Source: Escherichia phage vB_EcoM-Sa45lw. Taken from it: a stretch of DNA of 64,000 nucleotides. The notes beneath the pieces are model-generated. The model had not been told where the DNA came from, made no database searches, and saw nothing but the letters and a program-made list of their open reading frames with translations. The translations under genes were made by a program, and so were the position numbers. The stretch is taken from sequence record MK977694.1; one strand, given 5' to 3'. Shown here in pieces: positions 3,438-5,730 of this stretch; within the stretch, counting starts at the first letter, position 1, and each line of letters starts with the position of its first letter.

Positions 3438-3448
3438 AGATACCAAAA

Positions 3449-3474
3449 AGCCCCAACCTTTCGGCTAGGGCTAA
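3449..3474 (-). terminator. rho-independent terminator (minus strand)
   Basis: Minus strand: GCCCTAGCC-GAAA-GGTTGGGGC stem-loop followed by TTTTTGG, directly after the stop of 3480..3953. Confidence 0.6.
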
Positions 3475-3479
3475 GAATG

Positions 3480-3953
3480 TTATTTGATTTGTTTAGCAGA
3501 CCAAATGCGGTCTTTAATAATTTTTTGGATATCTTCAACATACTCAAGAGAGTGAGCATGTGGGTTATCTTTGAAACTATAAGCACGAGCTAGTTTTTGG
3601 CCTTCAGTTTTGATTACTAAAAGCTCTTTAAGGATAGCTTCATATTTGGAGATAATTCCTTTAACAATATTTTTCTCTTGTGCGACTTTAGGATCTGCTT
3701 TAGGAGCAGGTTTACCCGAAGCCTTTGCAAAAGCAGCGCCAGTAGCAACTAAACTTTTCCAGGCCATACTAACTGCATTTCCCGTAAATCCTTCCGCTTT
3801 CATGTCGCGTGCGAACTGGAATCGTGATTCATCAGAAGCATCTTTGTAAGAATATTTACCCGCTGCAATGGCTGCTTTTGCGACAGCTTGAATTTCGGTG
3901 CTAGATGCTTCATTTAACACCGCTTCATTTAAAAATTGAGTATATGATTTCAT
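3480..3953 (-). CDS. internal head protein-like (IPII/IPIII position), 157 aa, capsid-targeting N-terminus
   Basis: N-terminus MKSYTQFLNE|A resembles the T4 IP capsid-targeting sequence (MKTYQEFIAE|A) with an L-x-E prohead-protease site; TATAAATA late promoter upstream on minus strand; Ala/Lys-rich. Confidence 0.6.
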   Translation of the reverse strand: MKSYTQFLNEAVLNEASSTEIQAVAKAAIAAGKYSYKDASDESRFQFARDMKAEGFTGNAVSMAWKSLVATGAAFAKASGKPAPKADPKVAQEKNIVKGIISKYEAILKELLVIKTEGQKLARAYSFKDNPHAHSLEYVEDIQKIIKDRIWSAKQIK

Positions 3954-3993
3954 CTTATTTCCTGTTTTAATTCGTGGATTTAATATACTACTA

Positions 3994-4001
3994 TATTTAT
4001 A
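3994..4001 (-). promoter_or_regulatory. T4 late promoter TATAAATA (minus strand)
   Basis: Exact TATAAATA on minus strand about 40 nt upstream of the IP-like gene start. Confidence 0.55.
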
Positions 4002-4007
4002 CCAAAA

Positions 4008-4031
4008 AGCCCCAACCTTTCGGTCGGGGCT
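4008..4031 (-). terminator. rho-independent terminator (minus strand)
   Basis: Minus strand: AGCCCCGACC-GAAA-GGTTGGGGCT followed by TTTTTGG; nearly identical to the hairpin at 3449-3474. Confidence 0.6.
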
Positions 4032-4032
4032 A

Positions 4033-4340
4033 AGCCTTGCGGCAACCTTGTCGGGGTTCCACCTGCTAAGGCAAGTGTTTGTACGAAACGCCGGGATTCG
4101 AACCCGGTTATTAAGCAGTTGACGCTACTCAATATTTTTAAAAGGCCATATCTCGACCATATCCGAACGTTCCGTCAAAAACGCTACTCGGCTTACGGCA
4201 AAGATATTTCCTCGAATCGATAATTCGGTGCGCCGTTTCTGCTGTGATGTAAGAGGGCATCAATAAACGCAAAGATTATTAACGCAATTCCTTACTCAGG
4301 GAACATCAGTCCGACGACTTACCGGTAGCGACCCGGTTTC
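4033..4340 (-). ncRNA. candidate stable structured RNA region (no convincing ORF), with tRNA-like T-arm
   Basis: About 300 nt, GC-richer than flanking coding DNA, between a good-RBS gene and a terminator; contains CCGGGTTCGAATCCCGG (plus 4091-4107) and palindromes GAACGTTC and CGAAT..ATTCG; no acceptor or anticodon arm found. Confidence 0.3.
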
Positions 4341-4691
4341 TTAATATTCTTTTAAAGCATCAATCTGTTTACGGCGTTCACGCCATAAATCAATTGCTTC
4401 ATACGCGGATTCAACATTTCGAATTGGACGGCATTTATATAAAGATTTGTGATTTTGATATTGCGTAGATAACGGAATTTTATCTAAAAGGTCTTTACGT
4501 TCAAAGTATTCGTAACCATCTAAGCCAAATGAACGATTTTTGAGAAATTGCCAATGACCAAATTCGTTTTGAATATAAATATAATCCGCATGTTGATAAA
4601 GTAAATTAATTTCACGAAATGAGATATGTTTTTCATATTCATTGAAGTAAAATGTTAAATCATGAACTACTAAATAAACATTACCTTTCAT
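4341..4691 (-). CDS. hypothetical protein (116 aa)
   Basis: ATG at 4691-4689 with GAGGAAAAT RBS, immediately downstream of tRNA-Arg. Confidence 0.5.
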   Translation of the reverse strand: MKGNVYLVVHDLTFYFNEYEKHISFREINLLYQHADYIYIQNEFGHWQFLKNRSFGLDGYEYFERKDLLDKIPLSTQYQNHKSLYKCRPIRNVESAYEAIDLWRERRKQIDALKEY

Positions 4692-4709
4692 ATTTTCCTC
4701 ACTTATAAT

Positions 4710-4785
4710 TGGTCGAGGCAGTAGGGATCGAACCTACGACCTAGGACTTAGAAGGTCCTTGCTCTTCCTTCTGAGCTATGCCCCG
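4710..4785 (-). tRNA. tRNA-Arg (anticodon UCU)
   Basis: Hand-folded cloverleaf; anticodon loop CU-UCU-AA; T-loop GGTTCGATCC; CCA encoded. Confidence 0.75.
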
Positions 4786-4789
4786 TAAT

Positions 4790-4865
4790 TGGGGTGACCG
4801 ATGGGAGTCGAACCCATGACTACGAGAATCACAATCTCGAGTTCTACCAACTGAACTACGGCCAC
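4790..4865 (-). tRNA. tRNA-His (anticodon GUG)
   Basis: Anticodon loop UU-GUG-AU, C73 discriminator, T-arm ATGGG-TTCGACT-CCCAT, CCA encoded; no G at -1 in the gene. Confidence 0.65.
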
Positions 4866-4979
4866 ATTAATACCTACTCCAACAATCAAGATGTCTTCAC
4901 ACGAAATTAAGAGAAGAGTGATCAGTTCAACCCCTATAATCGCGTCAAGTAGATATTAATGTGACAGTTGTCACAAATT

Positions 4980-5054
4980 TGGCGGACGTGATAGGATTCG
5001 AACCTATAACCAATCGCTTAACAGGCGATCGCTCTGCCATTGAGCTACACATCC
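4980..5054 (-). tRNA. tRNA-Asn (anticodon GUU)
   Basis: Acceptor GGATGTG/CACGTCC, D-arm GCTC..GAGC, anticodon loop CU-GUU-AA, T-loop TTCGAAT, CCA encoded. Confidence 0.75.
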
Positions 5055-5058
5055 AAAT

Positions 5059-5145
5059 TGGTGGGGAGTGATGGAGTCGAACCACCCGAGTCGCAATGAC
5101 AATGAATTTACAGTCCACACCGCTACCTCTACGGGATAACTCCCC
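5059..5145 (-). tRNA. type II tRNA, probably tRNA-Tyr (anticodon GUA)
   Basis: 87 nt with long variable arm; acceptor GGGGAGT/ACTCCCC; loop CU-GUA-AA; GACTGTAAAT..GTCAT..CGACT resembles bacterial tRNA-Tyr; D-arm not cleanly resolved by hand. Confidence 0.5.
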
Positions 5146-5157
5146 TAATTCATAATT

Positions 5158-5232
5158 TGGTGGCCCTGGGTGGAATTGAACCACCATCTGGCGATTATGA
5201 GTCGCTTGCTTGAACCTTCCAGCTACAGGGCC
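5158..5232 (-). tRNA. tRNA with CAU anticodon (T4 tRNA-Ile type via lysidine, or Met)
   Basis: Acceptor GGCCCTG/CAGGGCC; anticodon loop CU-CAU-AA; T-loop TTCAATT; CCA encoded; identity Ile versus Met cannot be decided from sequence. Confidence 0.65.
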
Positions 5233-5233
5233 T

Positions 5234-5309
5234 TGGTGCTGATTGACGGAATCGAACCGCCGACCTTCTCATTACAAGTGAGTTGCTCTACCTACTGAGC
5301 TAAATCAGC
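5234..5309 (-). tRNA. tRNA-Thr (anticodon UGU)
   Basis: Acceptor GCTGATT/AATCAGC; anticodon loop CU-UGU-AA; T-loop TTCGATT; CCA encoded. Confidence 0.8.
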
Positions 5310-5314
5310 AAAAC

Positions 5315-5404
5315 TGGCGGAGGTGATAGGATTCGAACCTATGAATCGCCGGAGCGACTGCCGGTTTTCAAGACCGGTGCATTCAACCACTCTGCCACAC
5401 CTCC
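5315..5404 (-). tRNA. tRNA-Ser (anticodon UGA), type II
   Basis: 90 nt; GGAGGTG TG GCAGAGTGGTTGAATGC start; loop CU-UGA-AA; long variable arm; CCA encoded. Confidence 0.8.
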
Positions 5405-5406
5405 AG

Positions 5407-5480
5407 TCTCCATACAAGGATTTGAACCTTGGACCTCCTGATCCCAAATCAGGCGCTCTACCAAACTGAGCTACACGGAG
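5407..5480 (-). tRNA. tRNA-Pro (anticodon UGG), CCA not encoded
   Basis: Acceptor CTCCGTG/TATGGAG; loop UU-UGG-GA; T-loop TTCAAAT; 3' end abuts tRNA-Ser as in the T4 Pro-Ser dimeric precursor. Confidence 0.8.
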
Positions 5481-5490
5481 TAAATTAAAT

Positions 5491-5564
<74 letters not shown>

Positions 5565-5569
5565 AAATT

Positions 5570-5656
5570 TGGTGCGAGAAGTGGGACTCGAACCCACAAG
5601 GAAATCATTCCGCAGCATTTTAAGTGCTGTGCCTTTACCAATTTGACCATTCTCGC
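5570..5656 (-). tRNA. tRNA-Leu (anticodon UAA), type II
   Basis: GCGAGAATGGTCAAATTGGTAAAGGCACAGCACTTAAAATGCTG...; loop CU-UAA-AA; long variable arm; CCA encoded; matches the T4 tRNA-Leu pattern from memory. Confidence 0.85.
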
Positions 5657-5657
5657 G

Positions 5658-5730
5658 CTGGGAATAAAGGACTCGAACCTTTGCATCCTGGAATCAAAAT
5701 CCAGTGCCTTACCAACTTGGCTAATTCCCA
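5658..5730 (-). tRNA. tRNA-Gln (anticodon UUG), CCA not encoded
   Basis: Acceptor TGGGAAT/ATTCCCA; loop UU-UUG-AU; T-loop TTCGAGT; directly abuts tRNA-Leu as in the T4 Gln-Leu dimeric precursor. Confidence 0.8.

Follow-up and report, generated by a model that had tools for sequence, protein, structure and literature searches.

Orthologues of the phage T4 stable RNA genes rnaD and rnaC in the tRNA operon of Escherichia phage vB_EcoM-Sa45lw

A stretch of 64,000 nucleotides (nt) from Escherichia phage vB_EcoM-Sa45lw (record MK977694.1; the whole stretch is called the window here) contains at positions 4033–4340 a GC-rich block with no convincing open reading frame (ORF) and with a T arm of the transfer RNA (tRNA) type. 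The question raised by this locus is what kind of RNA, if any, the block encodes. A first-pass annotation made from the letters alone offered three answers: a counterpart of the two stable RNAs that phage T4 encodes in its tRNA region, a tRNA remnant, or something new. The leading guess, the T4 counterpart, is correct. The block is collinear with T4 rnaD, rnaC and the terminator at approximately 97% identity, and its identity as the orthologues of rnaD (species 2 RNA) and rnaC (species 1 RNA) is near certain, as is the fold. The two T4 stable RNAs have been known since the 1970s. The finding is a rediscovery of genes already known, and the suggestion of something new is unsupported.

Identity of the block with T4 rnaD and rnaC

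Positions 3990–4345 (minus strand) show approximately 97% identity with T4 and a single 1-nt gap, trailer and terminator included. The segments are as follows.

4344-4227, minus strand: rnaD (species 2 RNA) orthologue, 118 nt, aligned to T4 NC_000866 71053-71171 with one 1-nt deletion
4226-4221, minus strand: A/U-rich spacer GAAUUA; the T4 annotation has a 6-nt gap here too
4220-4082, minus strand: rnaC (species 1 RNA) orthologue, 139 nt, with 137/139 bases the same as in T4 rnaC (NC_000866 70908-71046)
4081-4032, minus strand: conserved 3′ trailer with three small hairpins (CACUUGC/GCAGGUG, AACC/GGUU and GCC-GCAA-GGC)
4031-4003, minus strand: intrinsic terminator of the tRNA operon, a stem-loop (4031-4008) and a U run, the counterpart of the one that follows the species I gene in T4 (PMC2330249)

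The terminator is situated 50 nt downstream of rnaC. Its stem consists of 10 base pairs (bp), 7 of them G-C, with a GAAA loop followed by the U run; trailer and terminator together fold at −37.1 kcal/mol (z = −3.99). In the T4 reference, tRNA-Arg is followed by the misc_RNA rnaD and then by rnaC. The same sequence is annotated as rnaC or rnaD in the GenBank records of RB3, RB10, RB59, Aplg8 and ATK47. Escherichia phages slur02, slur04 and teqhal match the region at 100% identity, and wV7 does so at 99.7%. The window is that of a Tequatrovirus. A search of the window with a covariance model of rnaC (R1) shows one copy only, at 162 bits. Overall, the block is very probably best explained as the rnaD and rnaC orthologues, the last two genes of a phage tRNA operon.

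T4 makes both species 1 and species 2 RNAs, with no function assigned (PMC9697503, PMC3014915). A middle promoter upstream of the T4 cluster gives a primary transcript of about 1.75 kb that runs through all tRNA genes and ends after the species I gene, and this transcript is the precursor of the tRNAs and of the species I and II RNAs (PMC2330249). In T4, RNAC is seen by Northern blot and the RNAs build up as discrete species; RNAC and RNAD are counted among the late RNAs and described as "of yet unknown functions" (PMC9697503), and a 2010 review agrees (PMC3014915). Near identity to T4 suggests that stable processed RNAs of about 140 nt (rnaC) and about 120 nt (rnaD) would be made from the window as well.

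The first-pass description of the block stands in most respects. The longest ORFs touching 4033–4340 are of 50, 44 and 34 amino acids (aa); the 50-aa ORF (3980-4132) and the 44-aa ORF (4138-4272) are on the minus strand with TTG starts, and the 34-aa ORF is on the plus strand. The claimed GC-richness is also found. In 150-nt windows, G+C is 0.43–0.50 over 4000–4374 and lower in the flanks, with 0.25–0.34 in the upstream ORF (4375–4749) and 0.33–0.39 in 3850–4074. The block is bordered, as had been stated, by a gene (ORF 4341–4691, minus strand) and by the intrinsic terminator (4031-4008, minus strand). No full cloverleaf had been seen, and ARAGORN and the Rfam tRNA model agree in giving no match in 4033–4344; neither ARAGORN nor Rfam finds a tRNA, tmRNA or other family in the block. 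The highest-scoring Rfam match is a tRNA-Sec one, and its 16.6 bits are below the gathering score of 47.

Two points need correction of strand. The perfect T arm CCGGG-TTCGAAT-CCCGG is present, but the plus strand at 4091–4107 reads CCGGGATTCGAACCCGG, therefore the arm belongs to the minus strand (4107-4091), which also carries the 11 tRNA genes (4710–5730). Palindromes are present too, but the "terminator-like" one assigned to the plus strand (4321–4337) is hairpin P1 of rnaD, taken from the wrong strand. With these two corrections the observation as a whole is confirmed. The tRNA remnant is partly right as to shape, with rnaC retaining an acceptor stem, a T arm and probably an elbow, but not as a decaying pseudogene, for the sequence is conserved and its helices are kept by compensatory changes. 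The covariance-model and comparative structure analysis that had been proposed as a check was carried out and gives a covariation-backed fold of rnaC from 26 distinct sequences.

Structures of rnaC and rnaD

Covariation shows rnaC to be a tRNA-shaped four-way junction without an anticodon arm, with a kissing-loop pair in addition. A covariance model was built and the 26 distinct sequences, from about nine named genera, were aligned; counts below refer to this alignment. The parts of the fold in the window are these.

4213..4219 (CGAUUCG, nt 2-8) with 4084..4090 (CGUUUCG, nt 131-137), minus strand: acceptor-like stem of rnaC, 7 positions
4143..4212 (nt 9-78), minus strand: long irregular arm of rnaC, 70 nt, closed by AGG/CCU; an unpaired GG adjoins the junction
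4178-4173, minus strand: kissing partner A, apical loop UUGACG, the exact complement of partner B
4109..4134 (nt 87-112), minus strand: 10-bp hairpin of rnaC, 1 nt 5′ of the T arm, with loop CGUCAA
4124-4119, minus strand: kissing partner B, loop CGUCAA of the 10-bp hairpin
4091..4107 (nt 114-130), minus strand: T arm of rnaC, CCGGG-UUCGAAU-CCCGG, contiguous with the acceptor 3′ strand; this is the motif noticed in the first-pass annotation

The minus-strand RNA (4082–4220) has a minimum free energy (MFE) of −50.2 kcal/mol, with a z-score of −4.55 relative to shuffled sequences; for the plus strand z is −0.30. Standard pairs occupy 95.8% of the alignment cells, vs 37–43% when the partners are slid by 1–3 columns. 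Compensatory change is found in 30 of the 54 pairs, and none of 500 shuffles matches the observed value on any measure, although this control overstates significance, since the alignment was made to fit the model and the sequences share ancestry.

In the acceptor stem (helix 1) and the T arm (helix 8) pairing is complete (100%) across the 26 sequences, and each of the two has one covarying pair. The five Watson-Crick pairs of the acceptor stem are formed in 26/26 and the two U.U mismatches are invariant; acceptor pair 3 covaries without exception (AU 10, GC 16), and the middle pair of the T stem is GC in 11 and UA in 14. The long arm shows compensatory changes in 13/20 pairs of helix 2 and 4/6 pairs of helix 3, and the 10-bp hairpin in 9/10 of its pairs. 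MFE folding alone gives the same architecture in the Moonvirus, Gelderlandvirus, Kanagawavirus and Ursula sequences, which are approximately 70% identical.

The loops UUGACG and CGUCAA are invariant except in Klebsiella phages, which display UUGGCG with CGCCAA. All six loop-loop positions pair in 26/26 sequences, and the changed position is AU in 24 and GC in 2. Pairing of the two loops, within one molecule or between molecules, is thereby supported by the sequence comparison. A second tertiary contact is the elbow. The unpaired GG (nt 74-75) before CCU is the candidate partner of T-loop positions 55-56, and in Winklervirus and the CIP9 group a T loop UGCAU.. goes with CG in place of GG. The first elbow pair is G.U in 22 and C-G in 4, and a G-C pair is kept in 26/26. 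The GG and the T loop probably make a tRNA-type elbow contact, with GG in the role of tRNA G18-G19. Past the acceptor stem the sequence is U-ACA-A in the window and in most genera; in Klebsiella phages U-CCA-A is encoded, which suggests that this 3′ position may behave like N73-CCA.

Three other pairings were considered for rnaC and rejected. A tRNA-Sec-like acceptor (ACGGAACG, nt 46-53, with the 3′ strand) has one pair unpaired in 7/17 sequences; the true partner of the 3′ strand is the 5′-terminal CGAUUCG, which covaries perfectly. Pairing of the 5′ GAUUCGA with the T-loop segment UCGAAUC fails in Winklervirus, the CIP9 group and VR25, which alter the T loop and leave the 5′ motif unchanged. 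As for an anticodon arm, the CAU proposed by ARAGORN in the homologue of phage id4496 has a non-pairing stem, and the rnaC copy of the window has no such arm.

The structure of rnaD is of a different kind. Comparative folding shows invariant 5′ and 3′ segments around a hairpin with a drifting sequence and predicted pairing that is kept. Two hairpins are predicted.

4321..4337, minus strand: rnaD hairpin P1, ACCGG-GUCGCUA-CCGGU, 5-bp stem and 7-nt loop
4246..4297, minus strand: rnaD central hairpin, hypervariable in sequence with conserved pairing

P1 is predicted in every homologue and its outermost pair covaries (AU 9, GC 5, GU 2). The invariant GUCGUCG is predicted to pair with the invariant 3′ end CGGCGCAC. 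The central hairpin shows at least four sequence types that cannot be aligned with each other, each folding into a long hairpin at the same place, and within the alignable types the changes are compensatory. A CCA end was considered for rnaD and rejected; T4 rnaD ends in ..GCGCACCA and most homologues in ACCG or ACAG, so the CCA of T4 is coincidental.

In a 2025 evolution experiment, the one single-nucleotide polymorphism (SNP) common to all lines of the T4-like phage BW-1 adapted to E. coli ECOR34 was in rnaD, and its authors found the predicted fold not drastically changed (PMC12685909). Mapped on BW-1 (OR125554.1), the SNP is T to C at 164264 of the plus strand, i.e. A76 to G in rnaD. The ancestral BW-1 hairpin reads CACAG-UUUUA-CUAUG, and 5/5 related rnaD sequences compared have CUGUG as the second strand. 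With the SNP, a C-G pair of the central hairpin forms again and the family fold returns; the predicted energy goes from −25.9 to −31.0 kcal/mol. Because this pair is found in all the related phages, the ancestral BW-1 stock carries a hairpin-breaking allele. The BW-1 SNP is indirect evidence, by way of the predicted fold, that rnaD structure is under selection in at least one host.

Distribution, operon context and rival explanations

Sequence related to the region is found in 760 phage records, nearly all T4-like. There are 743 records with an rnaC-like sequence, 97–100% identical throughout Tequatrovirus, Mosigvirus and Gaprivervirus, and 734 with an rnaD-like sequence, mostly 77–90% identical. 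rnaC and rnaD occur independently of each other. In three Dhakavirus loci rnaD is found without rnaC, joined straight to the trailer (..GCGCACCGAA and then directly CACUUGCC..), and the rnaC covariance model gives no match in these three loci. rnaC is cleanly missing there (compared with window 4223-4080), therefore it acts as a self-contained cassette, as one tRNA gene of an array does. rnaC without rnaD is found in Karamvirus, Winklervirus, Kanagawavirus, Moonvirus, Gelderlandvirus, Klebsiella phages and Citrobacter phage Ursula. In most of these phages rnaC adjoins tRNA genes or stands between them, and the junction after the upstream tRNA in phages without rnaD is CCA-AAUUA-UCGG. Outside Tequatrovirus and its close relatives, rnaC is one more member of the tRNA array. 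RB69 and VR25 retain both RNAs in loci that show only two tRNA genes (locus tags 001 and 002).

Pattern scans beyond these records find the element only in DNA of T4-like phages. Scans of IMG/VR show only T4-like contigs and three chance matches, scans of metagenomes show ten T4-like contigs, and a scan of 185,579 bacterial and archaeal genomes gives one chance match, in a Devosia coding region. A weak second match to the rnaC model is seen in a Karamvirus-like contig (L010, 1073-1188, minus strand; 21.7 bits, E ~0.006) and may be a class II tRNA.

Upstream of the block the following are found in the window.

4341..4691, minus strand: 116-aa ORF (phrog_3355, RB69ORF150c-like, no Pfam match) between tRNA-Arg and rnaD; T4 has no ORF here
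4710..5730, minus strand: tRNA array of 11 genes (ARAGORN, Rfam), upstream in the same transcription unit
5827-5799, minus strand: middle-promoter-like site upstream of tRNA-Gln, with a MotA-box-like AATTTGCTTTA, 12 nt and TATTAT, read by eye

The site at 5827-5799 would agree with the middle promoter from which the tRNA operon of T4 is said to be transcribed (PMC2330249). The window has the extra tRNAs Met, Tyr, Asn and His, lacks segB, and carries the ORF before rnaD. Judged by sequence, this gene order is of the T2L/RB3/RB69 type, not the T4 type (see also PMC2330249). The TAA stop of the 116-aa ORF (4343-4341) overlaps the first bases of rnaD. T4 rnaD begins 2 nt after tRNA-Arg and here the 116-aa ORF precedes it, so the rnaD 5′ end must form otherwise than in T4.

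Other features of the operon and its surroundings were seen. The operon terminator is duplicated, as a 36-nt direct repeat with 92% identity at 3440-3475 and 3999-4034, 559 nt apart. The copies flank a 157-aa ORF (3480-3953, phrog_2280), and T4 has one terminator and no ORF there; this looks like an inserted ORF cassette with duplication of the terminator. The T4 late-promoter core TATAAATA occurs 23 times in the window vs 10 expected, and one copy, at 4001-3994 (minus strand), is right after the terminator and upstream of the ORF 3480-3953. Within the tRNA array, the 114-nt spacer between tRNA-Asn and tRNA-His (4866-4979, minus strand) folds at −32.7 kcal/mol (z = −4.36). It is approximately 87% conserved in Karamvirus loci, directly upstream of tRNA-His, and its 13-bp closing helix shows compensatory changes (UUAAUAUCUACU/AGUAGGUAUUAA vs UCAAUAUUUACU/AGUAAAUAUUGA). 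The spacer also carries a UUGACG motif; Rfam gives no family for it, and the tRNA operon may have a third structured RNA here.

Several rival explanations have to be weighed. The whole block could be a cis-acting 3′ end only, a buffer that shields the upstream tRNAs from 3′ exonucleases and guides processing, with the stable RNAs as by-products. Its place at the 3′ end of the operon, the highly structured trailer and terminator, and retention of the trailer even without rnaC would suit such a role. This is nevertheless unlikely. In Karamvirus, Winklervirus, Gelderlandvirus and Ursula, rnaC is inside the array with tRNA genes on both sides and not at a 3′ end, and a protective hairpin needs no invariant loops, covarying loop-loop pair or tRNA-like elbow. 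Moreover, rnaC and rnaD accumulate as discrete species in T4 (PMC9697503), and the BW-1 SNP points to selection on rnaD itself. Still less likely is a reading of rnaC as a tRNA pseudogene in decay, in a block that as a whole has no function and only fills the end of the operon. In its favour, an acceptor stem and T arm that lack an anticodon arm could resemble a broken tRNA, ARAGORN calls the id4496 homologue a 95-nt "tRNA-Met", and no phenotype is known for the RNAs (PMC3014915). Against it, over approximately 680 Tequatrovirus-type records rnaC stays 97–100% identical, while the neighbouring rnaD hairpin drifts to 77–90%. The 30 compensated pairs are spread over about nine named genera, and the conserved parts are the non-tRNA ones, i.e. 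the long arm, both loops and the U.U pairs. rnaC is retained where only two tRNA genes remain, and the anticodon stem drawn by ARAGORN for id4496 fails to pair on reading of the sequence.

That the block instead encodes small proteins, the 50-aa and 44-aa minus-strand ORFs, is highly improbable. These ORFs do match phrog_28391 (E 4.5e-35) and phrog_24262 (E 3.4e-34), and a "hypothetical protein" is annotated here in many records. Against this, both have a TTG start with no ribosome-binding site seen, and the 50-aa ORF spans the terminator hairpin and the trailer as well as the T arm. F26 and F13076 have TTA at its start, L019 and VR25 have in-frame stops owing to a 1-nt deletion in a loop, and the ORF is impossible in Dhakavirus and in genera with a tRNA gene after rnaC. 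The 44-aa ORF loses start and frame in most homologues. Neither start nor frame of the two is conserved among homologues, where lost starts, frameshifts and stops are found and the ORFs are missing if rnaC is missing or has tRNA genes on its flanks, and the substitutions compensate base pairs and show no codon pattern. Most likely phrog_28391 and phrog_24262 derive from repeated automatic annotation of a conserved RNA locus. The least credible alternative is membership of rnaC in a known family of tRNA mimics, either transfer-messenger RNA (tmRNA), possibly permuted, or bacterial Y RNA (YrlA), with which it shares a tRNA top half on a non-tRNA body. ARAGORN finds no tmRNA, and rnaC matches no Rfam family at even E = 0.3, chance matches aside. 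It lacks the G3.U70 pair, a tag ORF and the tmRNA-type set of pseudoknots; its ends form the acceptor stem, which is unlike YrlA; and the single match in the prokaryotic genomes scanned is a chance one.

The annotation of the locus in public records is unreliable. Most deposited genomes leave it blank or place spurious "hypothetical proteins" over rnaC and rnaD, and Rfam has no model for either RNA. In phage id4496 the rnaC homologue (L003, 1546-1640) is annotated as the 95-nt tRNA-Met.

Proposed biogenesis and function, and comparison with known systems

With the block read as rnaD and rnaC, the following course may be proposed. Transcription of the minus strand would start upstream of tRNA-Gln and run through the tRNAs, the 116-aa ORF, rnaD and rnaC as far as the terminator (4031-4003). 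Host nucleases that process tRNAs would then cut out rnaD and rnaC, which would accumulate as stable species of about 120 and 140 nt. Co-transcription, termination, excision and accumulation are shown for T4 in the literature, and near identity suggests the same for the window. The A/U-rich junction CCR-AAUUA-UCG, which follows the end of rnaD or the CCA end of a tRNA, may be a nuclease entry site as used 3′ of tRNAs, and the GAAUUA spacer of the window would be such a processing site.

In the rnaC fold the acceptor stem stacks on the T arm, and the 70-nt arm and the 10-bp hairpin stand in place of the D and anticodon arms. Because it has the acceptor/T-arm module, rnaC would be a substrate for tRNA end-processing and T-loop modification enzymes, and would most likely enter the tRNA-handling pathways of RNase P or RNase E, 3′ trimming, CCA addition and T-loop modification. 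With a tRNA top half, no decoding half and its loops masked, rnaC might act not in decoding but as a mimic or decoy for a factor that reads the acceptor, T arm or elbow. Candidates are host factors reading tRNA acceptor ends or elbows, e.g. a defence toxin that targets tRNAs, or an enzyme of processing or repair. rnaD might tune fitness in particular hosts. Repair of the BW-1 hairpin during adaptation to ECOR34 hints that rnaD could set the efficiency of infection in such hosts. Both the decoy function of rnaC and the host-specific function of rnaD are tentative inferences. The wider picture is, if anything, more doubtful: rnaC as a dedicated tRNA mimic, made rigid or multimeric by the kissing pair and kept by T4-like phages of Enterobacterales, and rnaD as a separate, fast-evolving, host-specific RNA.

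A number of points weigh against this account. The T4 tRNA region, rnaC and rnaD included, is dispensable in laboratory hosts, and no phenotype is known from 50 years of work. The covariation of the kissing loops comes from one lineage with two distinct sequences, and that of the elbow probably arose only once (Winklervirus and the CIP9 group). In the T4 annotation of rnaC, U1 is one base outside the 7-position acceptor stem and the 3′ end is ..CGUA, with no CCA; because U1 is outside the stem and the end is not CCA, the 5′ end may be made by RNase P or RNase E, and CCA may be added or not. For rnaD, the long-range helices never vary and so give no covariation signal either way, and the MFE z-score is only −1.64. 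The transcript ends used here are carried over from the T4 annotation.

The searchable literature gives no usable function, no tRNA-like or kissing-loop model and no processing data for these RNAs. Likewise, no account was found there of the rnaC fold and its loop-loop pair, of the two RNAs occurring independently, or of the SNP in structural terms, in a body of literature that excludes the primary papers of the 1970s–80s and leaves room for an earlier tRNA-like drawing of species 1. As a finding, a T4-like phage that carries T4 rnaC and rnaD is ordinary and its value is practical. The covariation-backed fold, the modular distribution and the reading of the SNP supply concrete mutations and assays for a question of function that is about 50 years old.

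Compared with T4 rnaC, the window copy is on the same strand, is followed by the same trailer and terminator and has the same neighbour, rnaD. It differs by two substitutions and in nothing else of importance: in the long arm C stands against U, and in the hairpin stem G against A, at a position that is still paired as U.G. The rnaD copy is collinear with that of T4, approximately 97% identical and of the same central hairpin type, but has the one-base deletion and a 3′ end ACCG vs ACCA in T4.

Among known RNA families, tRNA (RF00005) is the closest in shape, especially class II tRNA with a long variable arm. rnaC shares with it a 7-position acceptor stem contiguous with a 5-bp T stem, the UUCGAAU T loop, a closing pair of the G53-C61 type, the four-way junction and the probable GG/T-loop elbow, as well as a location in tRNA arrays and, in some homologues, an encoded U-CCA end. 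Unlike tRNA it lacks an anticodon arm and a normal-sized D arm, has two U.U mismatches in the acceptor stem and a loop-loop pair, and is 139 nt long. It does not form a full cloverleaf, and the acceptor implied by the tRNA-Sec match is contradicted by covariation.

The tRNA-like domain of tmRNA and the YrlA module likewise place a tRNA top half on a non-decoding body. Unlike tmRNA, rnaC has no tag reading frame and no G3.U70, acceptor pair 3 being A-U or G-C. A YrlA-type layout was not found, with no Rfam match at E up to 10 (the presence of a YrlA model in Rfam 15 was unchecked). The loops of phi29 pRNA pair between molecules and so form a ring on the packaging motor; T4 packaging is not known to need an RNA. 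The resemblance to rnaC is in the layout, two complementary hairpin loops of one RNA, and in rnaC these loops covary.

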